A stretch of DNA of 64,000 bases from a virus. Its lineage: Duplodnaviria; Caudoviricetes. The stretch lies in IMG/VR virus record IMGVR_UViG_3300028886_000041; one strand, written 5' to 3'. Every line of letters begins with the position of its first letter. Position 1 is the stretch's first letter. Shown in pieces: positions 2,180 to 33,590 of this stretch. The translations under genes were made by a program, and so were the position numbers. The notes under the pieces were generated by a model, which did not search any database, was not told the DNA's origin, and saw nothing but the letters and a program-made list of their open reading frames with translations.

Positions 2180-2196
2180 TTTATATATAAGAGTTA
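2180..2196 (-). promoter_or_regulatory. TAACTC-N5-(-10) promoter heading the main tRNA block
   Basis: TAACTC TTATA TATAAA; one of 13 copies. Confidence 0.6.
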
Positions 2197-2199
2197 AAA

Positions 2200-2451
2200 T
2201 TAATCTTTTATATCCAACAATAATTTTTTTACTTCGCGATATTTTTTAATCTTCCGATCTATGGCGCGTTTAAATCCTTCACGAGCTACTGGAAGACCCT
2301 TAAACATATGAATAATATATTCCTCTAAATTCATCCCCAGCATTTCAACCAAAATGTCTGAATTATTAATGAATGCATCGATATCAAGTTTATCAGCTAT
2401 TAACACTGCCGCATCGATTATTTTATTGTTTTCTTTTGTTTCTTTTTTCAT
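2200..2451 (-). CDS. hypothetical protein
   Basis: 83-aa ORF, co-oriented. Confidence 0.65.
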   Translation of the reverse strand: MKKETKENNKIIDAAVLIADKLDIDAFINNSDILVEMLGMNLEEYIIHMFKGLPVAREGFKRAIDRKIKKYREVKKLLLDIKD

Positions 2452-2486
2452 ATATTTTATTTTTAATTAATTGTTTTATTTTAACG

Positions 2487-2578
2487 CGGAGAAAGAGGGT
2501 CTCGAACCCCCACACCCATTTCTGAGTTAACGCATTTCAAGTGCGCCGTCATTAGGCCGAATCTTGACTTATCTCTCC
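2487..2578 (-). tRNA. tRNA-Ser(UGA)
   Basis: GGAGAGA acceptor, G73; arm GCGCA CTTGAAA TGCGT; long V-arm. Confidence 0.9.
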
Positions 2579-2808
2579 GAAGTATTAAAATCTTCATCAA
2601 AATACATATATACATTCTTAAATGCAGTCCATGAACCAAATTCGCGAATGATATCACCGTATTTCAACATATGTGACATACAATTATCTTTTATTACTTC
2701 CCTAAATTCATCTCGATTAAAAGGAAGCGAAAAAATACCATCAAGAAATGCAGTATTGATTAATATTTTAATTTGAGCATCATTTAGATTGTATTTATTT
2801 GTGTTCAT
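2569..2808 (-). CDS. hypothetical protein
   Basis: ATG 6 nt after TAACTC-N5-TATAAT; stop lies inside tRNA-Ser. Confidence 0.7.
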   Translation of the reverse strand: MNTNKYNLNDAQIKILINTAFLDGIFSLPFNRDEFREVIKDNCMSHMLKYGDIIREFGSWTAFKNVYMYFDEDFNTSER

Positions 2809-2814
2809 GGAGAT

Positions 2815-2831
2815 ATTATAAAAGAGAGTTA
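2815..2831 (-). promoter_or_regulatory. TAACTC-N5-TATAAT promoter
   Basis: TAACTC TCTTT TATAAT, 6 nt before ATG 2808. Confidence 0.75.
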
Positions 2832-3116
2832 TTTTTTAAGTTCTAATACCATTATATCATTACAGAATGTTTGATAATCGTTTTCATTTGTAAAATCTAA
2901 ATCAGTATCAAACAATAAATCACCAAAATCTTTATCTTCAAAATCAATCGATACATCATTATCAATTTTAGCTGCTGATAATATATTATTGATTGTTTGT
3001 TTAGCCTGTTCTTCTGTTTTGAATAATTTTGTATATATAGGTTGATTGATAGAATCAGTATCAACTGTTAATTCTAATCCATCTTCCTTCTTACGATATG
3101 TTATTCTTATTTTCAT
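2829..3116 (-). CDS. hypothetical protein
   Basis: 95-aa ORF in a tightly packed run. Confidence 0.7.
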   Translation of the reverse strand: MKIRITYRKKEDGLELTVDTDSINQPIYTKLFKTEEQAKQTINNILSAAKIDNDVSIDFEDKDFGDLLFDTDLDFTNENDYQTFCNDIMVLELKK

Positions 3117-3396
3117 TTAATTTGTTTATAATATCATAAACATTAACGATAGTCAAGCAATGAAATTTTATTTGTATTTGCTCGGGTTCCATATGAGTAT
3201 CAATTGAACGAACTAAATCTTTTAAAATCTGTATATTATTACTTCGTGTAATAAAAATAGGCTCCTTATCTTTTTCTTCCAAATATAACTCAAATTTTAA
3301 ATTATTTGATGTTACGTTGATTTTAAATAAAATACCTGTACCAATTTCAAACTGATAACAGCGTCGTTTATAATTAATAATCCATGGATCTCTCAT
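3091..3396 (-). CDS. hypothetical protein
   Basis: 101-aa ORF. Confidence 0.65.
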   Translation of the reverse strand: MRDPWIINYKRRCYQFEIGTGILFKINVTSNNLKFELYLEEKDKEPIFITRSNNIQILKDLVRSIDTHMEPEQIQIKFHCLTIVNVYDIINKLNENKNNIS

Positions 3397-3435
3397 TCCT
3401 ACCGCATGTTTTCCTTCCGTTAAAATATTTATTTC

Positions 3436-3690
3436 TTAAAAGTAAAAATCATCGTAAAATTCCCCATAATCATCTTCCCCGATATTTTTATTACTTTTAA
3501 ATAATTTTTGAAATATATAAGATGTGAAAATACCAATGATAATAACAATCGGGCTAGATAAAAGTAATATATAAAAATAATATGCAATATTATATGGTAT
3601 TAGTGTTAAAAGATAACTAATAGTTCCTAATATTAATAATGTTATAGTACCCACAAGATAATATTTTAAACAGTTTTTTAAACAATCCAT
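3436..3690 (-). CDS. small membrane protein
   Basis: Two hydrophobic segments and an acidic tail; start taken at MDCLKN. Confidence 0.65.
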   Translation of the reverse strand: MDCLKNCLKYYLVGTITLLILGTISYLLTLIPYNIAYYFYILLLSSPIVIIIGIFTSYIFQKLFKSNKNIGEDDYGEFYDDFYF

Positions 3691-3823
3691 AAAATTAATC
3701 TCTTGAAACGTTAATTGAAAATCTAATATCAGTAACGAATTGATATAAATATATAATAAATAAAAATTGATAAAAATCAATAAAAATTTTTCAAAAAATA
3801 AACTATTTTACATAAATAATTAT

Positions 3824-4426
3824 ATGAAAGCAAAACAGATTGTATCTATTTTAGGTATATCAAAACCAACATTAACAAAATATGTTAAAGAAGGCCTAAT
3901 AAAAATTGATAATGTTATTAATGGTAGATATTTATATAATGATGAATCTGTGTATGCACTAATAGGCAATCGAAAATGTTGTAAGAACAAATATAGTGTA
4001 ATTTATGCTAGAGTTTCAAATCCACCCAAAAAATATCTCGATGAACAAATTCAACGTATTTCTAATTTTTGCATTTCCAAAGGTATTCAAATAACTAAAG
4101 TATATTCTGATATAAAATCTGGTATGTATTTTAATAGAGAAGGATTAGATAATTTAATTTTGGATATAGTTAAAGGTAATATAGATACAATTGTTATTGA
4201 AAATAAAGATAGGTTATGTCGTTTTGGGTTTGAATTGTTTTTATCATTTTGTAAATTTTATAAAACTAAAATTTTAATTATATCTGATTTATCGGAAAAA
4301 TCTTATGAACAGGAGCTGACAGAAGATTTAATATCAATAATACATTATTTTTCTATGAAATCTTATTCCCATAGAAGAAAATTAAACAAATTACGAAAGG
4401 AAATAGAAAATAATGATAACAATTAA
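3824..4426 (+). CDS. tnpA: IS607 serine recombinase TnpA
   Basis: N-terminal MerR-type HTH, IYARVS catalytic motif, KDRLCRFGFE, EQELTEDLISIIHYFS. Confidence 0.93.
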   Translation: MKAKQIVSILGISKPTLTKYVKEGLIKIDNVINGRYLYNDESVYALIGNRKCCKNKYSVIYARVSNPPKKYLDEQIQRISNFCISKGIQITKVYSDIKSGMYFNREGLDNLILDIVKGNIDTIVIENKDRLCRFGFELFLSFCKFYKTKILIISDLSEKSYEQELTEDLISIIHYFSMKSYSHRRKLNKLRKEIENNDNN

Positions 4427-5756
4427 ATTAGATATTACAACAACAAACCCCAATAGGATTTTAGAATATCAAAAACAATATTCGAATTTATTACATATAT
4501 TTTATAATAGATATAAAGAAGGCATATCTCAAACAGAATGTAAACATCTTCAATTTAATAATATTGAATTATTAGATAGTTGGTTCAGACAAAGCTGTAT
4601 ATATGAGGCCATAGCATTATGTAAAAAATTTAAAGATAAATCAATTATATTTGGAGGAAAGAAAAATTTCTTTGATAGATTAAAGAATATTATTAGTAAA
4701 GAAGAATATAATAGAAATAGATTAAGTCCTTTATATTCAATAGGTGAGGGTTCTAATCCAGGCGTAAAAGGGAATAGGAAATTTTTTATACGAGATTTAA
4801 ATACAATAATTTTTAAACCATCTAAGAAAGAAAAAATAGAATTAAAATTTCAAATTAATTCGAAAAAATATAAACAATATTTGCAATTATTAATGTTACA
4901 TCAAGATAAAAAAGACTTATCTATTACTTACAAATTATCTCATGAAAAAATTTGGATAAGTTTTGATGAAACTATTTTAAAAACTGAATTAAAAAATTAT
5001 AATAAAATTCAAAATAGAATAATTAGTATTGATTTAAATCCAAATTATATTGGATATTCTGTTTTAGATTGGTTAGATAGTGAACATTTTAATATTATTG
5101 ATAAAGGTATTTTAAGTTTAAAATATTTAAATGATAAAGAAAATAAAACAAAATGCTCATCTAATGATAAACTGAAAATTTATTTAAATAATAAAAGAAA
5201 TTTTGAAGTATTAGAAATATCTAAATTTCTTATAAATAAAATGAAACATTTTAAATGTTCTTTATTTGCTATTGAAAATCTAAATATTAAATCAAAAGAT
5301 AATGGCAAAGGTCGTAAATTCAATAAACTTTGTAATAATCAATGGTGTCGGACAAAATTAGTTAATAATTTACAAAAATGGTGTAATATATATTCAGTAA
5401 ATTTACTAAAAGTTAATCCTGAATATTCATCATTTATCGGAAATATAGTAAACAGAGAATTGAAATTACCTGATATGATTTTAAGTTCAATAGAAATATC
5501 ACGAAGAGCTTTTGAATTTAATCATCAATATATTTTAAAAGATTGTCCTTTAAAAAAGAATATAATATGGATAGAAATGACTAATTATATTAAAAACAAA
5601 ATTATTCAGTCATTGGAAGAATTGAATATTTGTTGTGATTGGAAAAATCTGTTCGAATTATATTTACACATCAAAAAATCTAAATGTAAATATAGATTTC
5701 CACTAGAAATAGATGGTTTTAAGGCAAAATTATTAAAATATCAATTAATTTTTTAA
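4413..5756 (+). CDS. tnpB: IS607-associated TnpB-like RuvC nuclease
   Basis: RuvC-I IISIDLN, RuvC-II FAIENL, VNPEYSS, RuvC-III LPDMILSSIEI; no CxxC zinc ribbon. Confidence 0.85.
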   Translation: MITIKLDITTTNPNRILEYQKQYSNLLHIFYNRYKEGISQTECKHLQFNNIELLDSWFRQSCIYEAIALCKKFKDKSIIFGGKKNFFDRLKNIISKEEYNRNRLSPLYSIGEGSNPGVKGNRKFFIRDLNTIIFKPSKKEKIELKFQINSKKYKQYLQLLMLHQDKKDLSITYKLSHEKIWISFDETILKTELKNYNKIQNRIISIDLNPNYIGYSVLDWLDSEHFNIIDKGILSLKYLNDKENKTKCSSNDKLKIYLNNKRNFEVLEISKFLINKMKHFKCSLFAIENLNIKSKDNGKGRKFNKLCNNQWCRTKLVNNLQKWCNIYSVNLLKVNPEYSSFIGNIVNRELKLPDMILSSIEISRRAFEFNHQYILKDCPLKKNIIWIEMTNYIKNKIIQSLEELNICCDWKNLFELYLHIKKSKCKYRFPLEIDGFKAKLLKYQLIF

Positions 5757-6686: not shown

Positions 6687-6703
6687 ATTATAATAAAGAG
6701 TTA
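6687..6703 (-). promoter_or_regulatory. TAACTC-N5-TATAAT promoter
   Basis: TAACTC TTTAT TATAAT, 6 nt before ATG 6680. Confidence 0.75.
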
Positions 6704-7111
6704 AATTACTCTTAATCTATGTAACCCACATTTTGTACAATATTCTTCAACATATACAAATTTCCACCAAAGATGGCCTTCTTGATGATATTTACATATT
6801 TGCCAATCATGATCACAGTCTTCGTTTTGTTCCTTTTTTAAGTTAGTATCAAAACCCGGGGTATGTTGCAACGCAGTAAACACAGTAGAATCAATATGTT
6901 TATTCACCAATTCTTTATCCATATTTGGAAACTTATTTCTATAAAGAGAACGAGTATGAAATGCAATTTTTTCTGCTTCCGATAAATTGCTTATATGTTT
7001 TATGCCTTTATAAATATCAGCATAATGAGCAGGTAATTCAGGAAATTCATCATCTGTTATTTCCATATATCCATATTTTATTCTGAATAATTTTTCTTGG
7101 TATTTGTTCAT
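6701..7111 (-). CDS. hypothetical protein with C-terminal CxH...CxxC zinc ribbon
   Basis: CDHDW...YCTKCG. Confidence 0.7.
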   Translation of the reverse strand: MNKYQEKLFRIKYGYMEITDDEFPELPAHYADIYKGIKHISNLSEAEKIAFHTRSLYRNKFPNMDKELVNKHIDSTVFTALQHTPGFDTNLKKEQNEDCDHDWQICKYHQEGHLWWKFVYVEEYCTKCGLHRLRVI

Positions 7112-9279: not shown

Positions 9280-9316
9280 TTGTAAATTATTTTTTGATTT
9301 GATATAAGAGAGTTAT

Positions 9317-9550: not shown

Positions 9551-9567
9551 ATTATAAAAGAGAGTTA
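9551..9567 (-). promoter_or_regulatory. TAACTC-N5-TATAAT promoter
   Basis: TAACTC TCTTT TATAAT, 6 nt before ATG 9544. Confidence 0.75.
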
Positions 9568-9588
9568 AAATTAATTTTAACTCTCTTT
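9557..9588. repeat. perfect 32-bp palindrome
   Basis: AAAGAGAGTTAAAATTAATTTTAACTCTCTTT equals its own reverse complement. Confidence 0.95.
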
Positions 9589-12761: not shown

Positions 12762-12781
12762 ATTTTAAATTTAAAGAAGAG

Positions 12782-13306
12782 TTATTTTACTCTTCTTCCT
12801 TTTACCATAACTTTTGGTAGGTAAGTTTCTGTATAATCTCCATATCCATCATAATCATAATGACATGTAGTCCATGGTATTACTTGAAAACAATTATCAT
12901 TTTTATTCCATACATAAACCTGATCACCGCAAAGATTTTTTTGACAATACTTATACCATGTTTTAAATTCATTATCATATTCTGCTAAGATCCAGGGAGA
13001 TTCAATATCGATCTTTTCACTTTTCAGATTAAAAGGAACCATTACATGTTTCTTAAAAAGATATGTATAATAAACTCCCTCTGGTTTTGTTTTATCGGGT
13101 GCAACATACACAAGAGGAATATACAATATCTCTTTGTTTGCGAATGATTTAATTTCTATCTCATTGATAGGAATAACAGTTTCAATCGGCTTGATTTGCT
13201 GATCTGAATGATCGGATTTCCTAGAAGAATCCAATACATAAATCGTGAAACATACAAAAAGAATCATGATAGTTGCATAGAGGTAATTAATTAATTTATT
13301 CATCAT
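12782..13306 (-). CDS. N-terminally anchored hypothetical protein
   Basis: N-terminal TM helix. Confidence 0.7.
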   Translation of the reverse strand: MMNKLINYLYATIMILFVCFTIYVLDSSRKSDHSDQQIKPIETVIPINEIEIKSFANKEILYIPLVYVAPDKTKPEGVYYTYLFKKHVMVPFNLKSEKIDIESPWILAEYDNEFKTWYKYCQKNLCGDQVYVWNKNDNCFQVIPWTTCHYDYDGYGDYTETYLPKVMVKGRRVK

Positions 13307-14930: not shown

Positions 14931-14986
14931 AACATTTATATTTTATTTTGTTATTTAAATTTTACAAGAGAGTTATTTAAAATATT

Positions 14987-17547: not shown

Positions 17548-17564
17548 ATTTTAAAAGAGAGTTA
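17548..17564 (-). promoter_or_regulatory. TAACTC-N5-TAAAAT promoter (second copy at 17610-17626)
   Basis: TAACTC TCTTT TAAAAT; TAACTC TTAAA TATAAT. Confidence 0.7.
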
Positions 17565-17575
17565 TTTTTTAAAAA

Positions 17576-17607
17576 TAAAAAACCATAAGGAATTTTTCCT
17601 TATGGTT
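17576..17607 (-). terminator. intrinsic terminator
   Basis: AACCATAAGG/CCTTATGGTT hairpin followed by a T-tract on the minus strand. Confidence 0.75.
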
Positions 17608-17737
17608 ATATTATATTTAAGAGTTATTTTAAATTAAATTATCAATTATTTTTTACATGATTGATCACTCGTGTATTAAAAGTTTTACCTTTATCAGCTG
17701 CATTTATATTAGAAAAAGCAGCTGTTCTATTCATAGA

Positions 17738-19613
17738 TGGTGCATGACCGGCTCCGCGCTATTTCACGCGCTCGAGCAACCGAGAAACATCATGATTACC
17801 GTCACCGAAAAGATACGCCCAGTGTGTTATTCCTCTGAGCCCTCGTCGGGTTCGTCTATCGCCTTGCCGTTGTATCGGTCAGCGATAGCCTGAACGTTGG
17901 ATATGCCGAGACGCGCGACGTCGTCCGCGTTCAGGCGTATGACGCGCCCTGGTGCGACAAGTCTGCCGCCGTCTGTGTAGATGTCACCGCAAACTTCGAT
18001 GACCTCGATTTGCAGGTTTTCGTTATCGCCGATTTTTATGCGTGATTGATTTTTCATTTTACATTATGAGTTCGTCGTATGTTATCGCCGCTCGAAGATT
18101 GACGATTCCAGTTCCGGCGGCGTTGCGGAAAATGGAAATTGGAATGTTGTAATCGCCGCCGCCCCAGCAGTTGACAGACTGCCACGTGCGCGCGGCGGAG
18201 AATGTTACCGAGGAGGTGTATCCGCTCGCCGATACGCGGAGAGTTAGCGCTTTGTCGCTCCAAAGTTTGAGCGTGCAGACGCACTTGCCTGCCGCAGCCA
18301 CGACTGTCGAGCCGCCTATTCTGGCGCCCGTATTCTTGGACAAATCGAGCGAGAAATTATCGTAACAAGCCGACGCGGGATTTCGGTTTTTGTCAGCGCT
18401 GACGCCGAGCCCGACGGGAACATATCCCTCGTGAAAATTAAGGTGGTTTCCGTTTCCGGACAGGTCATGTATTTGAGGCCCTGAAAGGGCGTCGTCGGCT
18501 TCGCAGAGGACGTCATCGGCGGTCGTTATCGAAAATCCTGCGACGGATATGGCGTAGTCGCCGTATGTGGGTGAGTTTGTCGGTGAGACGAACAGCGCGG
18601 GAATGTAAAGGCCGTCCTCAATGCTGTCAGTTATGACGGCGTCGTATTCGTGCCACGAGGTGTCGGGTGCGGTCGGCGCGTTGATTTTGACGAGTTGCTG
18701 CTCGGAGATTTCGGGCCCCCATATATAGACGCCGAAGAAGACACTGTCGGTCGCGCTCGTGAGCTTATTCCACTTATACTTAAACTTTATGCGGTATTTG
18801 CGCGTCGATGTGTCCGTCTGAAAATGCCCGTAAGAGTTGCTGAGCGCAGCTTGTTCGTAGATGTTGCCGCTGCCGTTCATCGCGAGGTCTATGGCGTAGC
18901 TCTCGCCGTCGGGCAGGTCTGACGCTCTGTTTTTAAGATAAGACACAAGCGGGCCAGCTACCCAGTCGCCATTTTTAACGGACGAGTATTCCTCCGGCGG
19001 CGTGGTGATGTTCCACGCGGACGTGGACGCGCCCATTGTCGTGTCGGTCGAATATCCATATCGACTGCGCAGCGCACGCGGAACGGATTTCCCCGCGCGG
19101 TAGTCGGCGAACGTGTAAGGCGCGTTCTCGTCCAGAATATCGAAGTCAAAAACCGCAAGCCGCGAAAAGCTGCTGTCGCCATTCGCATAAGTGGAGTTGA
19201 AGCCGAACTCAGTGACGGACGTGGAGAAAGACAGGCTCGTAGCCGCGAGAGACGAATCGTTCGCGGCGATTTTTATTTTTCCGTCGGACGTCCAGACGAA
19301 CGCGACGCAGTATATCGGCGCGGCGGGAATATTGTTGAGCGTGACAGTGTCGAGCCGTTGGTCGTCCATAATTGTGAAAAACGCCGTCGCGGACGACGTG
19401 TGTCCGCCGAATGGGCAGCCGAACATTGTAAACAGCTCCGACTCGTTCATGCTGTCGGTCGTGAATACAAACGAACAAGTTGGCTGAATGTTATAATTTG
19501 CCCGATTGCAGGAGACCTTTTCGGCGCCAGCTGGCGCGTAAAATTTGCCGATGCGCTCTCGCATTAAAAATTCGCTCGAGGACTGAGCCACCTCGAGAAT
19601 TTCGTCGGAAATG
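17738..19613. other. GC-rich horizontally acquired cassette
   Basis: Sampled 60-nt lines inside have 28-40 G+C against 9 in a flanking line; abrupt edges. Confidence 0.9.
17827..18057 (-). CDS. small protein accompanying the fibre C-terminal domain
   Basis: 76 aa, starts 1 nt after the upstream stop, GC-rich codons. Confidence 0.7.
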   Translation of the reverse strand: MKNQSRIKIGDNENLQIEVIEVCGDIYTDGGRLVAPGRVIRLNADDVARLGISNVQAIADRYNGKAIDEPDEGSEE

Positions 19614-20068
19614 TCACCACTTAAAGTAGCACCATTGATAGTTGGTTTGTTTTCTAAATCGTTATAACTAACACTTAAATCAACAGTGGAAAGATCACCA
19701 CTTAAAGTAACACCATTGATAGTTGGTTTGTTTTCTAAATCGTTATAATCTGATGTTCCACCATCATTTAATAAATATACTAATTTAGCATATCTCGGAT
19801 ATAATCCTTCTTTTCCAGATAAGGGTGGTATAACAGATGAATCTATTTCAACTAACGCACAATCTTCAGCATGTGCTGGATTATACGGATTTTCCGGGTG
19901 AATATCGTTATTATTGCCGTTATTTACGTTATAAACAAATGTAGCATATCTTGGATATACCCCTTCAAGCCCTGTTAGAGGAGAAACAACCGATTGATCT
20001 ACCTCTGTTAAAGTTAAATCTTCAGCATGTGCTGGATTGTAAGGATTTTCTGGATTAATAGTTGACAT
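18059..20068 (-). CDS. chimeric tail-fibre/receptor-binding-like protein
   Basis: AT-rich repeated N-terminus (ENPYNPAHAED x2; YNDLENKPTING.TLSGD x2) fused to a GC-rich beta-rich C-terminus with LamG-associated DLSGNGNH motif; start 8 nt after TAAATA. Confidence 0.7.
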   Translation of the reverse strand: MSTINPENPYNPAHAEDLTLTEVDQSVVSPLTGLEGVYPRYATFVYNVNNGNNNDIHPENPYNPAHAEDCALVEIDSSVIPPLSGKEGLYPRYAKLVYLLNDGGTSDYNDLENKPTINGVTLSGDLSTVDLSVSYNDLENKPTINGATLSGDISDEILEVAQSSSEFLMRERIGKFYAPAGAEKVSCNRANYNIQPTCSFVFTTDSMNESELFTMFGCPFGGHTSSATAFFTIMDDQRLDTVTLNNIPAAPIYCVAFVWTSDGKIKIAANDSSLAATSLSFSTSVTEFGFNSTYANGDSSFSRLAVFDFDILDENAPYTFADYRAGKSVPRALRSRYGYSTDTTMGASTSAWNITTPPEEYSSVKNGDWVAGPLVSYLKNRASDLPDGESYAIDLAMNGSGNIYEQAALSNSYGHFQTDTSTRKYRIKFKYKWNKLTSATDSVFFGVYIWGPEISEQQLVKINAPTAPDTSWHEYDAVITDSIEDGLYIPALFVSPTNSPTYGDYAISVAGFSITTADDVLCEADDALSGPQIHDLSGNGNHLNFHEGYVPVGLGVSADKNRNPASACYDNFSLDLSKNTGARIGGSTVVAAAGKCVCTLKLWSDKALTLRVSASGYTSSVTFSAARTWQSVNCWGGGDYNIPISIFRNAAGTGIVNLRAAITYDELIM
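19614..19748. repeat. 54-bp direct repeat (19614-19667 and 19695-19748, one mismatch)
   Basis: TCACCACTTAAAGTA[G/A]CACCATTGATAGTTGGTTTGTTTTCTAAATCGTTATAA twice, 81-nt period. Confidence 0.95.
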
Positions 20069-20145: not shown

Positions 20146-20808
20146 TTAATTAGTGAGTTTGCGCATTGTAAGGGCCTTTTTAATAGCTTGAAGTTCTTCA
20201 AGATTTTCCTTACCCCCACTAAGTAACATTTCGTTTTCAACAAGATCTAAGACTTTAATGCCCTTATCAACTGGCATTTTTGTTAAAACATCCCTTTTAA
20301 TCATATCCCAGATATAATTAACACTGTTTCCCATCCCCGGTATTTTAGCAATAACCGTATCGTAGTCTTGCATAATCAAAGCACAAACCACAATTTTACC
20401 AAGCGGTGGTTGACAATTATTTAACTTCCAATTGTTTTTCTTTAACTTATCGTAAGCATTGGGTGTTTTACAAAATACAATAGCACTGAGTTGCAATACA
20501 ACTATATCAGAAACATTTGTTATTTCTTCATGAAACATATTGTAATAAGGACTGAACATCACGTATGCCTTAAGTGTTGAATTTCGTTGTTCAACTGAAG
20601 TAGCGGTGTTAAATAAACTCATAGCTGTTTCCGAAGATTTGAATTTATTAAACTCCTTATCAAAATCCGCTTTGTTTGCTAAAATATAATCATTTTTAGC
20701 GGAATATGTATCATTAAACGGAAATTCCGAAATGAGTTGATTAAGGTCTTTTGCAAAAACGTTAAGACCAATTAATGTTGTGATTGTTAAAATAATAAGT
20801 TTTTTCAT
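20146..20808 (-). CDS. secreted protein, tandem paralogue 3
   Basis: Signal peptide then AKDLNQLI; ends KKALTMRKLTN. Confidence 0.85.
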   Translation of the reverse strand: MKKLIILTITTLIGLNVFAKDLNQLISEFPFNDTYSAKNDYILANKADFDKEFNKFKSSETAMSLFNTATSVEQRNSTLKAYVMFSPYYNMFHEEITNVSDIVVLQLSAIVFCKTPNAYDKLKKNNWKLNNCQPPLGKIVVCALIMQDYDTVIAKIPGMGNSVNYIWDMIKRDVLTKMPVDKGIKVLDLVENEMLLSGGKENLEELQAIKKALTMRKLTN

Positions 20809-20834
20809 AGTTTTTATAAGTTGTTATTTTTGTA

Positions 20835-21497
20835 TTAGTTAGAAATTTTACGCATTGTTAATACTTTTCGAATAGTCTGACAATCTTCAAAATTAGTATT
20901 AAGATCGTTTAACAACATTTCATTTTCACAAAGATCTAAAATTTTTATAGCTTTATCATTCGGAGCATTTGTAATTACTAATTTTTTGATAGAGCCCCAT
21001 AGATAGTCTACGGTTTTACCGGAACCAGGTAAAAAAGAAATCAATAAATCAATATCTTGTGCATGAATGAGGCATGAAATAATATGGGGTTTATTAACGT
21101 AAACATTATTAATAGTCCAATTATTAGCTTTTAATTTGTTATATTTAGCTTTATTTTCGACAAATATTCGTGCACTAAGATGCAGTGCGACCAAATCATT
21201 GACATCAGTTATTTCACTATGGAACATTGAATAATATATAGTAAATAATCCATATTGTGAATCTGATGTTTTTCTTTCATCAGAAGTAGCAGTGGCGTTA
21301 TATGGAACCATAGCAAGTTCTGAAGATTTAAATGTATTAAATTCTTTGGCTATATCTGTTTTGTTTGCGCTAACATATGCGCGTTTTTCATAAAAAGTTC
21401 CATTTGTGGGAAACTCTCGAATAAGTTGATTTAAATCTTTGGCATACATAGATATACCAAAGAACAAAGTAAATAATGTAATAAGTATTTTTTTCAT
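20835..21497 (-). CDS. secreted protein, tandem paralogue 2
   Basis: Signal peptide then AKDLNQLI; ends RKVLTMRKISN. Confidence 0.85.
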   Translation of the reverse strand: MKKILITLFTLFFGISMYAKDLNQLIREFPTNGTFYEKRAYVSANKTDIAKEFNTFKSSELAMVPYNATATSDERKTSDSQYGLFTIYYSMFHSEITDVNDLVALHLSARIFVENKAKYNKLKANNWTINNVYVNKPHIISCLIHAQDIDLLISFLPGSGKTVDYLWGSIKKLVITNAPNDKAIKILDLCENEMLLNDLNTNFEDCQTIRKVLTMRKISN

Positions 21498-21511
21498 AGT
21501 ATTATAGTAAA

Positions 21512-22177
21512 TTAGTTAGCAAGTTTACGCATCGTTAATGCTTTTTTGATGTTTTGACATTCTTCAAGATTTGTCTTAAGCCCTTTCATTAGCATTTCTG
21601 TTTCGCAAAGATTAAGAATCTGAATGCCTTTATCTGTTGTAGTTTCACGAAGCACAGCCTTTTTAATCAAAGTCCAGCAGATATCAACAGCGCCTCCAGA
21701 CATAGGAATAACAGCGACAGCGGTATCAAAATCTTTAGATTCTAAAGCAGCAGAAAGAATTTGGTTCTTCTTAATTGAAACGTTACCAATTTTCCATCCA
21801 TTAGCTTTAAGCTCCGCATATTTATCAAGTTTTACACAATATACCCAAACACTAAGGCGTAAGGATACAAGATCAGGAACATCATTAGTTTCACCATAGA
21901 ATTGAATATACCAAGTATTAAAAAGACTATAAAGTTTATTAGCTTCTTCTTTTTCCGCATCGGTAGCGTTTTGTTTATAAGGAGCTAAAGCAATAGCTGA
22001 TTTTTTAAATGAATTAAAAGCAGTTGCTAAATCGTCCTTATTTGTGGCTGTATATATGTACTTTTGACCTCGTGTTCCATTTGCAGGATATTCAGACAAA
22101 AGCTGGTTAAGATCCTTAGCATACATCGATACACTAAGAATTAATATTGATATTGTTGTTAATATTTTTTTAATCAT
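21512..22177 (-). CDS. secreted protein, tandem paralogue 1
   Basis: Signal peptide then AKDLNQLL; ends KKALTMRKLAN. Confidence 0.85.
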   Translation of the reverse strand: MIKKILTTISILILSVSMYAKDLNQLLSEYPANGTRGQKYIYTATNKDDLATAFNSFKKSAIALAPYKQNATDAEKEEANKLYSLFNTWYIQFYGETNDVPDLVSLRLSVWVYCVKLDKYAELKANGWKIGNVSIKKNQILSAALESKDFDTAVAVIPMSGGAVDICWTLIKKAVLRETTTDKGIQILNLCETEMLMKGLKTNLEECQNIKKALTMRKLAN

Positions 22178-24908: not shown

Positions 24909-24921
24909 ATTTCTTTAAATT

Positions 24922-25569
24922 TTATAAAAGAGTTAATTGTAATAATTTATCTGCAACTACTCTAGTCATGTATACATCGTTTTTCAAATATTCTAAAGCT
25001 TGTTGTTTAGTTTCAGGATTATTAAGTAGAATTGTAAATTCGGAACCTTTACCATTTTTACCTGATAAACCAAAATATTTCGCAATTCTATCTAATGGTG
25101 TTTTATCAGGAAGCCCACAAGACCATATAACCATCAAATCAATACACTTTGATTCTAGATATTTTCCCATAAAAATATGCGGGACATTAATACCGTTTTT
25201 CCATGAACGGCGAATCATAAAGGGAATATCAAAATAATTACTATTAAATCCTACTATATAATCATTTTCTTGATATAAGTCCCACCATTTAGTCAAAATA
25301 TCTTTTTCGTCACCGTATATAATGTTAGTTTCACTAAATTGTTTAGTAACATTATCATATATGCAATATCCTAATGCAGACACATAACCTGTTAATGCAG
25401 ACAAGGGTGCTTTTTTACCTTCGAGATATTCTTCTTTTGCTTCCTTAAGATATGCATCAATACTTTCTTGTTTTTTATAATTACCCGGGGCATTAAATTC
25501 CGGCATTACTTTTTCTAACTCTTCTTTAGAAAGAGCACCAGTTTCAATATCAAATATCAAATACTTCAT
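24922..25569 (-). CDS. DnaQ/PolB-like 3'-5' exonuclease
   Basis: ExoI FDIET, ExoII GFNSNYFDIPF, ExoIII YLKNDV. Confidence 0.9.
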   Translation of the reverse strand: MKYLIFDIETGALSKEELEKVMPEFNAPGNYKKQESIDAYLKEAKEEYLEGKKAPLSALTGYVSALGYCIYDNVTKQFSETNIIYGDEKDILTKWWDLYQENDYIVGFNSNYFDIPFMIRRSWKNGINVPHIFMGKYLESKCIDLMVIWSCGLPDKTPLDRIAKYFGLSGKNGKGSEFTILLNNPETKQQALEYLKNDVYMTRVVADKLLQLTLL

Positions 25570-25593: not shown

Positions 25594-25833
25594 TTACTTA
25601 TCTAACAGTATATTATGTTTTACATCTAAAAACATTGTATAAGCATCTATATAATTCATTATTATATCGTCAATTTTTACTATTTTATCTTCAGGAATAG
25701 CAGATAGAAAATTTTCACATTCTTTACTATACCCTTCAGTTTCAAACGTTTCTAATTTTTCTGTTACTTCTTTGATATATTTCGTTAATTTAATAACTTG
25801 TTCGTTTATCTTTTCGAATTCAATTGTATCCAT
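25594..25833 (-). CDS. hypothetical protein
   Basis: Start taken at MDTIEF to avoid overlap. Confidence 0.6.
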   Translation of the reverse strand: MDTIEFEKINEQVIKLTKYIKEVTEKLETFETEGYSKECENFLSAIPEDKIVKIDDIIMNYIDAYTMFLDVKHNILLDK

Positions 25834-25837
25834 AATT

Positions 25838-26200
25838 TTAAAAAATATTTCTAAATAATCGTTTAAATATATCATTAATTGAAAAATCATCCGATATTAC
25901 TTTATTTGGTTTAATATCATTGATTATTTCATTATTTTCTATTTTTGTTTTATTTTCAGAAAGAGTTATTTTTTTATTTAAAAACCGTGTTTCAACTAAA
26001 TTTCCTTTATTATTATATCGATATAGAATATAATGATTTTTATCTATATCTTTATTAAACACAATAACAGCAACGCTTTCTTTGTCATCGCAAATATCAG
26101 GACCAGCTATAATATCTCCAGATACAGCAACATAAATCGTATTATAAAAAGTATCTTCAAAAACTATCGTATTATTTTCAATATCAGTATTTATTATCAT
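25838..26200 (-). CDS. hypothetical protein
   Basis: Start at MIINTD, coupled to upstream stop. Confidence 0.6.
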   Translation of the reverse strand: MIINTDIENNTIVFEDTFYNTIYVAVSGDIIAGPDICDDKESVAVIVFNKDIDKNHYILYRYNNKGNLVETRFLNKKITLSENKTKIENNEIINDIKPNKVISDDFSINDIFKRLFRNIF

Positions 26201-26853
26201 CGTATAGCACCACATTCTATTCCAGTTGTATATATAAAGCCAATAATAGTTGCAAGAATATCATAAATCATAATATATTTGTATATTCGCCGTCTAAAAT
26301 TAAACATCCCATTTTCAGAACAAACTTCATACCAAACATATGTATATACCAAACCTACAATACCAAACCAAGTTGTTCCTAAAATAGGCGTGCACGCTAT
26401 TATAATAAAAGCAAGAATACCTCCATGTATTAAATGAAATAATCTACTTAAAAAATTTCTTATTGGGCATTTACCGTATCTATAATAATCACTATCTCTA
26501 GGATCACCCCCAGCAGGTCCACCAATAAATACTTTTGGTTCAGTAGCTTTTCGCGCAGGCACTTCATATTTAAATTGAGTATATGTACTAGAAGTAGTTG
26601 GTTTCGATTCTTTTTTAATTTCTTCGGGATCTTTATACGCAACCGAATTAGAACTTACCATCTTACTATCATTATCAAATACATATGTCCACAGCGCACC
26701 ATCTTTTATAACTGAAATAGTATATGTATCACCGTTAGTTGTAAATGAATGGGGTTTGCCATATACCATGGTACCACCAATAATATTTCCATTAACATCA
26801 TATATGTTATATGTATATTGACCAACTTTTAAAACATATGCAATCTTTTTCAT
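26197..26853 (-). CDS. membrane protein
   Basis: C-terminal TM helices; promoter motif 26863-26879. Confidence 0.75.
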   Translation of the reverse strand: MKKIAYVLKVGQYTYNIYDVNGNIIGGTMVYGKPHSFTTNGDTYTISVIKDGALWTYVFDNDSKMVSSNSVAYKDPEEIKKESKPTTSSTYTQFKYEVPARKATEPKVFIGGPAGGDPRDSDYYRYGKCPIRNFLSRLFHLIHGGILAFIIIACTPILGTTWFGIVGLVYTYVWYEVCSENGMFNFRRRIYKYIMIYDILATIIGFIYTTGIECGAIR

Positions 26854-26890
26854 GATGCATATATTATAAAAAAGAGTTATTTTAAAAATA

Positions 26891-27463: not shown

Positions 27464-27757
27464 TCAATTAGATTTGATTTCTTTTTCTACTTCCTTTTCA
27501 GTTTGTGTAATAACATCATTTAAATAAAAACGAGCTTTCTTTAAATCTTCCAATTTCTTTTGTAGCATAGTCATTCCTTCTTCTGCTTTATAACCTGCTC
27601 TCAGAACGTATTTAATAACACTACCCAAATTGAAAGGCATTTCACGAACTATATCGATACATTCAATACCTAACTTATTTTGTTTATAATGCGAAGGATG
27701 TTCTACTCTTCCCATTTGTTCTTTATTAATTTCATCTAATGTATATTTTTTACTCAT
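27464..27757 (-). CDS. DUF3310-family protein
   Basis: VEHPSHY..IECID..FNLGSVIKYVLRAGYK..EDLKKARFYL. Confidence 0.9.
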   Translation of the reverse strand: MSKKYTLDEINKEQMGRVEHPSHYKQNKLGIECIDIVREMPFNLGSVIKYVLRAGYKAEEGMTMLQKKLEDLKKARFYLNDVITQTEKEVEKEIKSN

Positions 27758-27785
27758 CGAGTATATATTATATAAGCGTTATTTT

Positions 27786-29138: not shown

Positions 29139-29142
29139 ATAA

Positions 29143-29880: not shown

Positions 29881-29902
29881 GTTTAATAAATAATTATATA
29901 TT

Positions 29903-30226: not shown

Positions 30227-30431
30227 CTTCTCCAGAATCTTTATCTATTTCTAATTCACCTCTTCTAGTTTGTACAATCACGAAATCGCTATAGTAATAT
30301 AGTTTTCTTCCATAATCATCATACATAAGTTCACCATTTCTATTGCGAGCTTCGTGATAATACGAATTTGTAGTACATCCTTGTAAAAGGAATACAACAA
30401 ATATAGTTGAAAATATTTTAAAGTATTTCAT
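30180..30431 (-). CDS. lipoprotein
   Basis: Lipobox LLQGC after signal peptide. Confidence 0.7.
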   Translation of the reverse strand: MKYFKIFSTIFVVFLLQGCTTNSYYHEARNRNGELMYDDYGRKLYYYSDFVIVQTRRGELEIDKDSGEVTSRFQPRYYRRLEQ

Positions 30432-32379
30432 TTAGATTTGTTATAATTTTGGTTCCTAATTTAATTGCTTTTGTGTATTTCGAACCCGGATCTTTTCCAA
30501 GTAATAAATAATCAGTTTTTTTAGATACACTTCCGACTACTTTACCACCAAGATTTTCGATTTCTTGTATAAGTTCGTCTCTACTAATATCATGGGTGCC
30601 AGTAATACATATCGTTTTACCAGCTAATTTACTAAATGCAGGAATATTGGTAATTTTAAATGTTATATATTCTAAAAGATGTTTAACTTCGTTGTTATTA
30701 AAAAGACCGGTATATAATGATTGTTTTGCAACGTTACCAATTGTATTAATTGTATACAATTTAATAGGATGTTCTAATTGGCAATCATTAAATAATGCAT
30801 TAAAATCATTATCATATGCCTTTAAAACATCTTTTGCAATGGTTTTACCTATTCCTTCAATACCTATTGAATGGAGCAACCGCCAAGGCTCAATATATGT
30901 TACTTTAGAAATATTAGATATTATTTTATCCGCTAATTTATCCCCCATTCTTTCCAAAGTAAGTAATTGCTCTTTAGTTAATTTAAAGAAATCGACAAAT
31001 TCTTTTAAAAATCCCGCTTTTATAAATTTTTCAATCCAAGCTCCCGAGACATCTGTAATATCCATACAATTACGACTTACAAAATGTTCCATTTTTGCTT
31101 GTAATACACCAGGGCAATCAAAATTAGAACAATACCATTGTTTTAATCCGGGGAATTGAATTGCTTTGCTTCCACAAATAGGACATTTTTCATCAAAAAC
31201 ATATGGAACAATATCGGGAGTTCTTTCTTCTTTTATTGGCCCTAAAATGTACGGAATAATTTCACCTGATTTTTCTATCCATATATAATCACCAATACGA
31301 ATATCCCTTGCGATCATTTCGTCTATATTATGGCAAGTAGCTCTTTTTACTATACTACCAGATATTTCAACCGGTTCGAGTTCAGCAACTGGTGTAATAG
31401 TCCCCATACGTCCAACTTGGAGTGTAATATTCAAAACTTTTGTTCGAACTTTTTCTGCTTCATATTTATAAGCAATACCCCATCTTGGTGATTTAGCAGT
31501 ATTTCCTAAATATTTTTGATTTTCAATATTATCTAATTTAATAACAGCACCATCAATTGGGTATGGCAAATTTTCTCTACGGATTTCTATATTTTTAACA
31601 CCCTGATACACAGTATTTTTATTACAATATTCGGTATATACAGTATTAATTCCCCACAATTTACAATCGTAATAAAATTCTTCCAAATAAAAATAAGGTA
31701 TGTCGCTGCTTCCTAGAGTATGAGCAACAAATTTCAATTTTCTATCTTTAATTATATTTTTATCCAATAATTTTATAGTTCCCGCGGTTAAATTTCTTGG
31801 ATTTTTATATGGCTCTTCACCGTTTTTAATTAATTCATCATTAATACGATTAAATTCTTCATATTCCATATATACTTCACCGCGAATATCTATGGTTGTA
31901 TTATGTGGAATCGTATCGGGTATTCCTTCTATAATAAATTTATTACAAGTTATATCTTCGCCGATGGTACCATCACCCCTTGTAACAATTCGTTTCAATA
32001 CACCATTTTCATAAACACAAGATAAAGAACATCCATCTATCTTTTCTTGTACACAAAATATATTATCTTCATCTTTATACGTAAATTTGAAAAACGTTTT
32101 GTTAACCCAATCTAACAACTCATCTGTATTATAAGTATTAGAAAGGCTTAACATAGGTGTTTTATGTTGCTCTTTTTTAAATTCATTTGTAGTATTAAGA
32201 GTTATTCTGTTAAGTATTGAATTTTCTGGTATATTATTGTTATATAATTTTCTTAATACAACACACTGTTCATCAAATTCACGATCTGATAATCCTGAAT
32301 TTATACCTAAACAATAATCCATCTCCGCTTGTTCTAGTTTAGCTTCGAGATTTTTTATCTGATCTTCAATACTTTCCAT
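30418..32379 (-). CDS. ligA: NAD-dependent DNA ligase
   Basis: PMLSL, EKIDG, TRGDG, RGEV, DGAVIK, CPICGS zinc finger, HhH, C-terminal BRCT. Confidence 0.97.
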   Translation of the reverse strand: MESIEDQIKNLEAKLEQAEMDYCLGINSGLSDREFDEQCVVLRKLYNNNIPENSILNRITLNTTNEFKKEQHKTPMLSLSNTYNTDELLDWVNKTFFKFTYKDEDNIFCVQEKIDGCSLSCVYENGVLKRIVTRGDGTIGEDITCNKFIIEGIPDTIPHNTTIDIRGEVYMEYEEFNRINDELIKNGEEPYKNPRNLTAGTIKLLDKNIIKDRKLKFVAHTLGSSDIPYFYLEEFYYDCKLWGINTVYTEYCNKNTVYQGVKNIEIRRENLPYPIDGAVIKLDNIENQKYLGNTAKSPRWGIAYKYEAEKVRTKVLNITLQVGRMGTITPVAELEPVEISGSIVKRATCHNIDEMIARDIRIGDYIWIEKSGEIIPYILGPIKEERTPDIVPYVFDEKCPICGSKAIQFPGLKQWYCSNFDCPGVLQAKMEHFVSRNCMDITDVSGAWIEKFIKAGFLKEFVDFFKLTKEQLLTLERMGDKLADKIISNISKVTYIEPWRLLHSIGIEGIGKTIAKDVLKAYDNDFNALFNDCQLEHPIKLYTINTIGNVAKQSLYTGLFNNNEVKHLLEYITFKITNIPAFSKLAGKTICITGTHDISRDELIQEIENLGGKVVGSVSKKTDYLLLGKDPGSKYTKAIKLGTKIITNLNEIL

Positions 32380-32385
32380 ATTTTA

Positions 32386-32402
32386 AATATATTATAGAGT
32401 TA
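32386..32402 (-). promoter_or_regulatory. TAACTC-N5-TATATT promoter
   Basis: 6 nt before ligA ATG. Confidence 0.65.
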
Positions 32403-32853
32403 TTTTTTCCCATGGAAAAACAACCCACTTATTACTTTTGATGCCATAAACAATATCATGCTCATTACTGCAACATAAACAAGCAGATATAACATTATTA
32501 ACCTTACGTTTCTTTAAATTTTCATTAATGTATTCAATTGTTTTACCTGAATCTATAATATCATCAATTACCAATACATTTTTATTATTTAAAACTTTAG
32601 CAGTGGGCAAGGACTGGTATTGTTTTATTTTTCCTCTTTTTTGACCTTTATATGATGAAACACCAACAACATACATTGGTTTATCTATTATATTTGCTAA
32701 TATAGTTGCGGGAATACAACCACCTTTAGCAATTGCTATAATATAATCTATAGTATCCAATAGATTATCTTGTTTTAATTTATTAATAATTTTTTCAACT
32801 AATTGATTAATATCTAACCAACTTAAATACATGTATTTATCATCTTCTCTCAT
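32392..32853 (-). CDS. purine phosphoribosyltransferase (Gpt-like)
   Basis: IAKGG, VLVIDDIIDSGKT PRPP motif, WVVFPWE. Confidence 0.92.
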   Translation of the reverse strand: MREDDKYMYLSWLDINQLVEKIINKLKQDNLLDTIDYIIAIAKGGCIPATILANIIDKPMYVVGVSSYKGQKRGKIKQYQSLPTAKVLNNKNVLVIDDIIDSGKTIEYINENLKKRKVNNVISACLCCSNEHDIVYGIKSNKWVVFPWEKITL

Positions 32854-33566
32854 CGTAATTTCAAATTTCCTATTCCAGGTACATTTATTGTATTTTCATC
32901 AATCATATGATAATCCGAAAAATCATAGCCATTTTTATCCATATATAATTTTTTAATTCCGGTCGATCCAAAACGGTTTTTTATGATATTCATTTCTAAA
33001 TCACCATCTTTTTTATTAATAAAAAATTGTGCATCTACCATATGAGCAATTTCGGAACTCCCTTTATAACTTCCTGTTTTTGTACTATGTAATATAATAC
33101 CAATACATTTATTGTAATTTTTAGCACATTCTATTAATTTATTAACAACAAACATAGGTACTTGTGATTTAGTAAGTTTATACTTTGTTTTATTATATGT
33201 TACTGTTGGTAAAGAATCAATAATTATAATATCATAATTTGGTATAATATTAGTAATAAAATCAATATCAGTATTATCACAAATATCTAAATTAACACCT
33301 ATACGATGACATTGCATAGCAAGCATCGACAAATCTTGCTCACCAGTAATATAAAGAGGTTTAATATTATTCGTTATTTTATATTGATAACAAATTTGCA
33401 ATAAAAATGTAGTTTTTCCCACACCAGGAACCCCGGACAATACAAAAGTTTGTGGACTATACAATTGACCACCAAATATACTATCAATCAAATATATATT
33501 TGACTTATAATAATGATACTGCGAAAAATTAACAGAATCTGAATTTATAATGCATCGGTGTTCCAT
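32850..33566 (-). CDS. RadA/Sms-like ATPase core
   Basis: GVPGVGKTT, YITGEQ, IIIIDSL, KNRFG; no Zn finger or Lon-like domain. Confidence 0.85.
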   Translation of the reverse strand: MEHRCIINSDSVNFSQYHYYKSNIYLIDSIFGGQLYSPQTFVLSGVPGVGKTTFLLQICYQYKITNNIKPLYITGEQDLSMLAMQCHRIGVNLDICDNTDIDFITNIIPNYDIIIIDSLPTVTYNKTKYKLTKSQVPMFVVNKLIECAKNYNKCIGIILHSTKTGSYKGSSEIAHMVDAQFFINKKDGDLEMNIIKNRFGSTGIKKLYMDKNGYDFSDYHMIDENTINVPGIGNLKLR

Positions 33567-33573
33567 GCATTAT

Positions 33574-33590
33574 ATTTTAATAAAGAGTTA
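33574..33590 (-). promoter_or_regulatory. TAACTC-N5-TAAAAT promoter
   Basis: 7 nt before ATG 33566. Confidence 0.7.

Follow-up and report, generated by a model that had tools for sequence, protein, structure and literature searches.

The closest described systems are promoters of T4-type phages and leaderless genes of Thermus phages. In T4, the MotA/AsiA middle promoters pair a sigma70-type -10 element with a phage-specific box, (a/t)(a/t)(a/t)TGCTTtA, which replaces the -35, is centred near -30 and lies 11-13 nt from the -10; the late promoters, read by gp55, consist of TATAAATA at -13 to -6 (PMC1524935). The PeSL cassettes of T4-type phages join a repeated intergenic, terminator-like stem-loop to a pre-late promoter, and those described have consensus sigma70 -35/-10 boxes followed by a Shine-Dalgarno sequence and then the ATG (PMC2839356, PMC4122927). 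Finally, in the Thermus phages phiYS40 and Lalka27a and in Deinococcus-Thermus, leaderless transcripts with the -10 adjacent to the ORF have been mapped experimentally (PMC3594737; bioRxiv 10.64898/2026.04.20.719267; PMC12340547).

The window analysed here, a 64-kb stretch of DNA, lies within a 105,954-bp contig (G000) that represents about half of the genome of a T4-like myovirus, a phage that is very AT-rich. Its sole detectable relative is a second record, G001, with a ligase identity of 64%. In the window, TAACTCTNNNNTAWWWT (TAACTCT-N4-TAWWWT) matches 11 times, always on the minus strand, which is the gene strand; dinucleotide shuffles of the window gave a mean of 0.18 matches and a maximum of 2. 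A first-pass annotation had listed 13 minus-strand copies, and all of them were recovered, 11 as exact matches and two as weaker but true variants. The hexamer is TAWAAT in 9/13, as stated there (TATAAT in five, TAAAAT in four), and the seven hexamer-to-ATG distances given, 6 nt in six cases and 7 nt in one, are those found here. The 6-nt stretches are A/T-rich and without GGAG-like sequence, which agrees with the remark that they leave no room for a Shine-Dalgarno. The features are as follows.

2180..2196, minus strand: promoter copy TAACTCT-tata-TATAAA (weaker variant), in front of tRNA-Cys (2149-2065) and of the tRNA array that follows it; the upstream ORF has its stop at 2200
2815..2831, minus strand: TAACTCT-cttt-TATAAT, 6 nt to ATG 2808 (79-aa ORF); the box TAA at 2831 is the stop of ORF 2829-3116
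6687..6703, minus strand: TAACTCT-ttat-TATAAT, 6 nt to ATG 6680 (145 aa); the box TAA ends ORF 6701-7111
9299..9315, minus strand: weak copy TAACTCT-ctta-TATCAA, 19-nt leader to ATG 9279
9551..9567, minus strand: TAACTCT-cttt-TATAAT, 6 nt to ATG 9544; a 14-bp hairpin (9588-9557) has the box as its 3' arm
12768..12784, minus strand: TAACTCT-tctt-TAAATT, 6 nt to ATG 12761 (107 aa, then RtcB); the TAA at 12784 is the stop of 12782-13306, and the box lies within a hairpin 3' arm
14959..14975, minus strand: TAACTCT-cttg-TAAAAT, 28-nt leader to ATG 14930
17548..17564, minus strand: TAACTCT-cttt-TAAAAT, 6 nt to ATG 17541, with a terminator directly before
17581..17607, minus strand: intrinsic terminator, a 12-bp stem-loop plus T-run, between two promoter copies
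17610..17626, minus strand: TAACTCT-taaa-TATAAT, predicted start inside the terminator stem
24919..24935, minus strand: TAACTCT-ttta-TAAAAT, 10 nt to ATG 24908
24922-25569, minus strand: exonuclease-subunit-like gene whose stop lies inside the hexamer of the 24919..24935 copy
26863..26879, minus strand: TAACTCT-tttt-TATAAT, 9 nt to ATG 26853, preceded by a terminator hairpin
27765..27781, minus strand: variant TAACGCT-tata-TAATAT, absent from the first-pass annotation, 7 nt to ATG 27757 (nucleotide kinase)
32386..32402, minus strand: TAACTCT-ataa-TATATT, 6 nt to ATG 32379 (NAD-dependent DNA ligase)
33574..33590, minus strand: TAACTCT-ttat-TAAAAT, 7 nt to ATG 33566 (DnaB-like ATPase)

A further six exact copies are found within 7 kb upstream of the window, and the contig holds 17 gene-strand copies in total. 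The structural module had been described as free of the motif; indeed there are zero gene-strand copies across the structural half of the contig, so that the class is confined to the non-structural, pre-late part of the genome. G001 has 39 copies, against 2 for a reversed control. A logo of 56 copies (18 from G000, 38 from G001), for which the search pattern had fixed T-12, A-11 and T-7 beforehand, opens with an A-tract, which is followed by TAACTC without variation, T at -17, a spacer rich in T, and TAWAAT. The copies occupy 20-30-nt gaps between tightly packed genes, with the box TAA serving as stop codon of the upstream gene at three sites (2831, 6703 and 12784), and they are found ahead of ORFs, tRNA-Cys and a phage tmRNA; their presence ahead of the latter two indicates that the signal is transcriptional and not translational. 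About a third of the copies follow or overlap strong stem-loops, and G001 has around a dozen occurrences of a longer repeat, AGTTAAAAAATAAAATAACTCT. In this respect the copies resemble PeSL cassettes (PMC2839356, PMC4122927): in both, a pre-late promoter accompanies a repeated intergenic stem-loop that may overlap it, the units occur at high density among small novel ORFs, and copies in tandem or left over point to recombination. The TAACTCT cassettes differ from PeSLs in having no -35, in being predicted to lack a leader in about a third of cases, and in carrying a Shine-Dalgarno in the leadered subset only. The motif is carried by two genomes only, G000 and G001, and because these are related, part of its conservation reflects shared ancestry.

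A canonical sigma70/sigma-A promoter has its -35 element, TTGACA, 16-18 nt upstream of the -10. Canonical promoters (TTGAYW-N16/17-TAWAAT) are also present in G000, some of them fused to start codons, and the two upstream elements are mutually exclusive: of the 14 genes whose ATG follows a -10 hexamer at 6-7 nt, six have the box and no TTG, while eight have a TTG at 16-18 nt and no box. Again, TTG at this spacing, for which the background rate is 6%, was seen in 0/6 (G000) and 0/11 (G001) of the start-abutting TAACTCT promoters. This supports the earlier proposal of a distinct promoter class with its upstream element, at -23 to -17, in place of the -35, and the presence of canonical promoters in the phage itself speaks against TAACTCT being the housekeeping consensus of the host. 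An extended -10 (TGn at -15/-14) does not substitute for the -35 either, G being present at -14 in 0/18 copies of G000 and 7/38 of G001. Downstream of the hexamer, among the 39 sites not abutting an ATG, base 7 is A in 34 (P 4e-6 against a background of 52%), and base 6 shows an excess of C. Sigma54 promoters have GG at -24 and GC at -12, and this candidate was rejected since only the two-block geometry is similar, the bases here being TAACTCT and TAWAAT. A T4-type late promoter is ruled out by the TAWAAT hexamer; TAAATA boxes form a class of their own in the structural half, 5-7 nt before the ATG of 24 G000 genes, and the genome encodes a homologue of the late sigma gp55 (phrog_234, E 3e-21). 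Both classes are devoid of a -35, but the TAACTCT class has an extra upstream box and is missing from the structural module. Finally, a MotA-dependent middle promoter was rejected on the box itself, which is TAACTCT at 4 nt from the hexamer and not TGCTTtA near -30.

The first-pass annotation had further proposed that the class forms a leaderless regulon, of which one part stands. In G000, 12 called genes have a TAWAAT/TATAWT that ends exactly 6 nt ahead of the ATG, whereas other distances give a mean of 1.8 (Poisson P 5e-7; gene calling was crude, an ORF being the longest ATG-started one), and TAAATA peaks at 5 nt. Each offset is specific to its class and equals the distance at which transcription is known to start from a -10 hexamer or a T4 late promoter, respectively. 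T4, run through the same script as a control, gave no hexamer-to-ATG peaks, 59% Shine-Dalgarno-like starts and, unlike G000, no late box abutting a start codon. Across the 56 copies the distance to the ATG is bimodal, with 16 at 6-7 nt (eight in each genome, all before an ATG and without a Shine-Dalgarno), four at 8-10 nt and all others at 13 nt or beyond, an AAAGGA-type Shine-Dalgarno being present in 14 of these. This geometry supports the prediction of leaderless mRNAs for about a third of the copies, whose start-site A would be the A of the ATG. It does not extend to the whole class, since more than half of the G001 copies have ordinary leaders, many carrying AAAGGA, nor is the layout special to it, since TAAATA late promoters and canonical promoters are likewise fused to start codons.

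Promoter and spacing are kept at five orthologous genes of G000 and G001 despite 34-75% protein identity. The promoter at 2815..2831 and its spacing are conserved, as is the 9-nt spacing at 26863..26879, and the variant at 27765..27781 has TAACTAT-tata-TAATAT as its counterpart. The ortholog of 33574..33590 is TAACTCA-caat-TATAAT, 6 nt from an ATG, and the N-termini of the DnaB-like proteins align from M1. At the ortholog of 24919..24935, TAACTAT-ataa-TATAAT lies 6 nt from the ATG, while that of 6687..6703 is a TAACTAT promoter with a 21-nt leader containing AAAGGA.

We put at roughly 70% the probability that TAACTCT-N4-TAWAAT serves a small clade of uncultured T4-like myoviruses as a pre-late promoter, early or middle, leaderless in about a third of its copies, and that fusion to start codons is a genome-wide habit. 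The hexamer would be a sigma70-family -10 element at -12 to -7, and the box, usually preceded by an A-tract, would substitute for the -35 element. Transcription would begin at the A seven bases past the hexamer; where this coincides with the A of the ATG a leaderless mRNA would result, and most other copies would yield leaders of 13 nt or longer, which often contain an AAAGGA Shine-Dalgarno. Canonical -35/-10 and gp55-type late promoters would be joined to start codons in the same manner. As in T4 middle promoters (PMC1524935), a phage-specific box takes the place of the -35 before a sigma70-type -10 in a pre-late class, and each is found alongside canonical early promoters and late ones of the gp55 type; at 4 nt from the -10, TAACTCT is however about one helical turn closer than the MotA box. 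As in phiYS40 and Lalka27a, the -10 is placed in many genes of a large phage such that the initiating nucleotide is, here as predicted from sequence geometry, the start-codon A. The hosts of those phages are themselves rich in leaderless mRNAs, whereas the phage studied here is T4-like and has leadered genes with canonical Shine-Dalgarno sequences. We consider the TAACTCT-box promoter to be a type not described before.

As for what reads the box, a phage-encoded specificity factor seems to us somewhat likelier than unmodified host polymerase. The searches covered the available halves of both genomes (records 48% and 54% complete), in which we found no gene with sigma70 region 2 or 4 and no match to the MotA C-terminal domain or AsiA (PF09158, PF09010). 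The first-pass annotation had also suggested that leaderless mRNAs could allow phage translation to go on during a shutoff of leadered host translation; with regard to this, a search for RegB and S21 gave no homologue. That these would be ordinary early promoters used by unmodified host RNA polymerase, with TAACTCT and the A-tract as a host-specific spacer or UP-like element or as part of a spreading PeSL-type cassette, is possible but on balance doubtful. The copies do sit where T4-type early promoters sit, at tRNA genes, small novel ORFs and terminator stem-loops (PMC1524935, PMC2839356). Their -10 is at or near consensus, gp55 is the sole phage sigma or activator found in the available halves, and the dozen-fold repeat of G001 fits the spread of a cassette. 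Against this, canonical promoters are used as well, and the mutual exclusion of the upstream elements suggests two recognition modes. Besides, the seven box positions are nearly invariant between G000 and G001, whose proteins are only 30-84% identical, which exceeds what cassette ancestry alone predicts, and no housekeeping sigma is known to use an element at -23 to -17.

Another reading accepts the promoter but has the ATG-abutting genes translated mainly from read-through polycistronic mRNA, independently of a Shine-Dalgarno (by A/U-rich leaders, S1 or reinitiation), so that the 6 nt would reflect signal packing. Many of these genes sit in unbroken same-strand arrays, so that they are present on read-through transcripts as well, from which they could be translated with no Shine-Dalgarno. 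The upstream stop codons lie 2-25 nt from the promoter-abutted ATGs, three of them inside the box, and 92/138 G000 genes without an abutting promoter also have no recognisable Shine-Dalgarno, which means that such initiation must be common in the host. We nonetheless judge this reading unlikely, since packing alone accounts neither for the sharp peaks of TAWAAT at 6 nt and of TAAATA at 5 nt, each at the start-site distance of its class, nor for the gap at 7 to 13 nt with Shine-Dalgarno sequences beyond it. The same geometry is also found after terminators (17564 and 26879), where read-through is not expected.

It is very improbable that the repeat is primarily something other than a promoter, be it a linker for recombination, a site of RNA processing or the 3' arm of terminator hairpins. 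Box and spacer do pair upstream into 6-14-bp stems at three window sites (9588-9557, 12784 and 6703), and promoter-hairpin-promoter tandems suggest recombination at the repeat; yet most copies have no complementary upstream arm, and several traits are those of promoters: the hexamer, a spacer fixed at 4 nt, an A where the start is predicted, and an orientation that strictly follows that of the genes. The motif, at 17-21 bp, is long and nearly contiguous, and it seems to bear a loose likeness to the T3 promoter core, TAACCCTCACTAAAG. Still, that it would belong to a phage single-subunit (T7/T3-like) RNA polymerase, starting right after the hexamer to give 6-nt leaders, is the least credible reading of all, because the N4 spacer varies, T-12, A-11 and T-7 are the sigma70 signature, the conserved A lies 7 nt downstream of the hexamer and not adjacent to it, gp55-bearing T4-like phages use host polymerase (PMC1524935), and neither fragment has a PF00940 match, a weak test as control genomes were also blank. 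The tandem arrangement of promoter, hairpin and promoter around the 17581..17607 terminator occurs again at contig positions 5138/5081, and the 17610..17626 copy is probably a leftover of cassette shuffling.

The window spans positions 7160-71159 of one 105,954-bp IMG/VR virus record (the whole contig, G000), with a GC content of 27.6%, a CheckV completeness of 48% and nearly all genes on the minus strand. The phage is a T4-like myovirus; it encodes the Gp23 major capsid protein (Pfam E 1.8e-86), tail sheath, baseplate wedge and hub, a helicase, Hsp70 and Mre11/Rad50-like gp47/gp46, and its gp55 late-sigma homologue adjoins gp47/gp46, the same arrangement as in T4. Size and GC content had suggested a crAss-like phage, a reading that the Gp23, sheath and baseplate genes rule out. 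When 9 kb were compared by megablast with the INPHARED phage collection, no match emerged and hence no close relative among deposited phages, while tblastn with the baseplate and RtcB proteins gave distant matches only. An IMG/VR search with the ligase yielded one relative, G001 (IMGVR_UViG_3300045988_163778; 121,793 bp, 54% complete; ligase 64% identical). The full-length Hsp70/DnaK is encoded upstream of the window (locus L001, 2308-4182, minus strand; Pfam E 3e-230) and is at most ~51-56% identical to the cellular DnaK matches found; compared with GTDB genomes, it shows 51-56% identity across many phyla, which points to no particular host. The Rad50-like gp46 homologue (locus L003, 14063-16315; contig 102962-105214) gave a weak intein splicing domain match near its N-terminus (E 4e-4, below the Pfam cut-off).

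The first-pass annotation had described 13 minus-strand copies of a TAACTC-N5-(-10) promoter, an observation that is confirmed as a whole. TAACTCTNNNNTAWWWT occurs 11 times in the window, exclusively on the minus strand, against an average of 0.18 in dinucleotide shuffles, and the two additional sites (2196-2180, TATAAA; 9315-9299, TATCAA) are genuine but weaker. Nine hexamers are indeed TATAAT or TAAAAT, and the distance from hexamer to ATG is 6 nt at six sites and 7 nt at one, as reported. A new variant with the same geometry, TAACGCT-tata-TAATAT (27781-27765), lies 7 nt upstream of the ATG at 27757, and six more copies are found within 7 kb upstream of the window. The upstream gene terminates on the TAA of the box at three sites. 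The promoter-bearing region codes for NAD ligase, RtcB, a DnaB-like ATPase, polymerase and exonuclease pieces, a nucleotide kinase, a phosphoribosyltransferase and five tRNAs, with a tmRNA gene directly upstream of the window; the structural module lacks the motif, as first noticed, with zero gene-strand copies across the contig's structural half. An A-tract followed by TAACTCT-ttct-GAAAAT (25952-25968) falls inside a conserved 125-aa ORF (25838-26215) and could drive 25594-25890 weakly from within that ORF, or have no function.

In G001, TAACTC-N5-TAnnnT is present in 39 copies, versus 2 for the reversed control pattern. The joint logo consists of an A-tract (-28 to -24), TAACTCT (-23 to -17), a T-rich N4 spacer and TAWAAT (-12 to -7). 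Promoter and spacing are both kept at orthologous genes whose proteins are just 34-75% identical.

Orthologues with promoter and spacing kept in G000 and G001 (window positions)
2808, 79-aa gene
33566, DnaB-like gene
27757, kinase gene
26853, gene with 9 nt in both genomes
24908, gene

At other genes the promoter class or the leader is swapped between the two genomes: gene 6680 has the leaderless layout in G000 and a 21-nt AAAGGA leader in G001, and the ligase gene has a box in G000 and none in G001. Scanning IMG/VR for AAAATAACTCTNNNNTAWAAT returned 61 stretches, with many copies only in those from G001; four other large IMG/VR contigs have 1-3 copies each, which is the chance level, and the helicase alignment, scanned against metagenomes, retrieved distant P-loop proteins only and no further relatives. 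Since these wider scans gave no other motif-rich genome, the clade is small, the motif being known from two related partial genomes only. A literature search with the motif string returned nothing but primer noise.

The hexamer bears a sigma70 signature. In the 39 copies not directly adjoining an ATG, base 7 after it is A 34 times (background 52%, P 4e-6). Base 6 shows an excess of C, and the pair forms a predicted pyrimidine-purine start of the usual kind. About a third of the copies come after, or overlap, strong stem-loops.

Stem-loops linked to promoter copies (examples)
17607-17581, 12-bp terminator
before 26879, hairpin

The same stem-loop and promoter architecture is found in the PeSL (promoter/stem-loop) cassettes of T4-type phages (PMC2839356, PMC4122927). 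Two promoter-hairpin-promoter tandems, 17626/17564 (window 17548-17626) and contig 5138/5081 (L001 about 5065-5138), have the predicted start of their first promoter inside the hairpin stem and look like scars of cassette recombination. A perfect 14-bp hairpin was also observed at 9557-9588, its 3' arm being the promoter's TAACTCTCTTT and its 5' arm the end of the upstream gene, with weaker forms at sites 12784 and 6703; the repeat AGTTA-N10-TAACT occurs about a dozen times in G001.

In fourteen G000 genes a -10-like hexamer stands 6-7 nt upstream of the ATG. The TAACTCT box is present in six of them, which lack a TTG at 16-18-nt spacing, while the remaining eight have no box and all display a TTG at that spacing (TTGACA, TTGATT, TTGCAA and similar; background 6%). 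In these genes the box thus excludes a TTG -35 and vice versa, which bears out the proposal of a distinct promoter class with its upstream element away from -35. Therefore the phage has three promoter classes: canonical -35/-10, TAACTCT/-10 and T4-type late boxes.

Canonical promoters, TTGAYW-N16/17-TAWAAT, 6-7 nt before the ATG of eight genes, never with a TAACTCT box
window 36407, 37699 (plus strand)
window 13306
contig 72346
contig 94478
contig 95517
contig 98605
contig 99300

The gp55 gene has the canonical type too, with an 8-nt gap. A generic sigma70 scan gave 139 hits versus 124 in shuffles, the DNA being too AT-rich for such a scan to be informative. As the canonical class argues for a host sigma reading an ordinary -35, we infer from the phage's own promoters that TAACTCT differs from the host housekeeping consensus. 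The TAACTCT class is real and conserved: a type of promoter without a -35, not described before, in a T4-like phage.

Over the 56 TAACTCT copies of G000 and G001, the distance from hexamer to ATG, counted on crude gene calls, is bimodal: 6-7 nt in 16 copies, 8-10 nt in four and 13 nt or more in the remainder, 14 of the latter with an AAAGGA-type Shine-Dalgarno ~7 nt upstream of the ATG. Shine-Dalgarno recognition by the host, leaders equipped with such a sequence and a class too tight to hold it are together what one would predict if the 6-7-nt copies initiate at the AUG. Spacing statistics agree with the early observation: a TAWAAT ending exactly 6 nt ahead of the ATG is seen in 12 genes of G000 and 14 of G001, with means of 1.8 and 2.8 at other distances. 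For TAAATA the distance is 5 nt in 12 genes (mean 1.3 at other distances), and 5-7 nt in 24 genes of the G000 contig and 16 of G001. These late boxes often read ATAAATAttt, and the late genes look leaderless too.

Start positions of TAAATA boxes in the window (others lie outside)
57628, minus
48530, minus
34056, minus
29149, minus
27455, minus
23336, minus
1157, minus
3813, plus
57647, plus

The one-base offset between the TAWAAT and TAAATA peaks matches the known start-site distances of each class (-12 to -7 for the -10 hexamer, -13 to -6 for the T4 late box; PMC1524935). In T4, the same script places no hexamer at 5-7 nt and no TAAATA at 4-8 nt, and 59% of the starts are Shine-Dalgarno-like; T4 also lacks a TAACTCT promoter. 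A leaderless early/middle regulon had been proposed; the start-abutting geometry holds, while its restriction to TAACTCT genes does not, because late and canonical promoters are fused likewise. Leaderless starts, well supported as predicted positions, would thus be a habit of the whole genome. To our knowledge, a promoter-fused start layout had been documented experimentally in Thermus phages only. These precedents for leaderless programmes are phages phiYS40 and Lalka27a (PMC3594737; bioRxiv 10.64898/2026.04.20.719267).

The factor reading the box had been sought in a phage activator or sigma, or an atypical host sigma. No sigma or MotA-like factor other than gp55 was found in the available G000 (48%) and G001 (54%): Sigma70_r2, Sigma70_r4, the MotA C-terminal domain, AsiA and T7-type polymerase have no match in either half-genome, and among about 60 proteins scanned with PHROG and Pfam gp55 is the only transcription factor, the other assignments being replication, nucleotide metabolism and structural. 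DNA at -23 to -17 faces the polymerase itself, between the regions contacting -10 and -35, so a phage sigma or sigma-remodelling protein is favoured over a classical upstream activator; we know of no described activator or sigma that uses this position. We tentatively propose, with a probability of roughly 0.3, that a novel phage-encoded factor of this kind reads the box and that, with fused starts in all three temporal classes, transcription initiation alone would set the translation start, largely independently of Shine-Dalgarno sequences. A serious rival, itself doubtful, is that unmodified host polymerase reads the box; the sigma70 hexamer and the factor search sit well with it, and the canonical class, read through an ordinary -35, speaks against it. 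A purely translational signal is excluded since copies stand before tRNA-Cys and tmRNA. Bacteroidota-type -7/-33 and sigma54 promoters were rejected as readings of the motif.

T4 middle transcription is the textbook example of host RNA polymerase re-aimed by a phage box that substitutes for the -35 contact, and MotA and AsiA are absent from most T4-like phages beyond the enterobacterial group. Compared with T4 middle promoters, the seven-base box described here lies one helical turn nearer the -10 and is mutually exclusive with a -35. The class is a variation on T4 middle promoters, PeSL cassettes and Thermus-phage leaderless transcripts, and the clade offers a clean, testable second solution to timing pre-late genes. 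One phage combines fused start codons in three promoter classes, yet its leadered genes keep a standard Shine-Dalgarno. If confirmed, this bears on gene calling and start-site prediction in uncultured phages, on the design of compact expression cassettes and on how phages tilt translation toward their own messages. S21 and RegB homologues, possible ties to translation bias, were not found; that the layout serves to favour phage messages is speculative.

Similar non-coding sequences without an ORF (atataaaaa-gaaaa-tcttaa...ctacttcaa) follow TAACTCT promoters at G001 96123 (plus) and 120695 (minus) (loci L008 and L009/L010) and may represent a duplicated small RNA gene. Within the window, a 669-aa ORF (18059-20068) has a local GC content of ~40%, versus 27% for the genome, and only its N-terminal part resembles a 330-aa G001 protein (62 aligned residues, 66% identical). 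Finally, three tandem paralogous genes at 20146-22177 encode proteins of 220-221 aa, with no function assigned, that are 26-30% identical to the product of one G001 gene.
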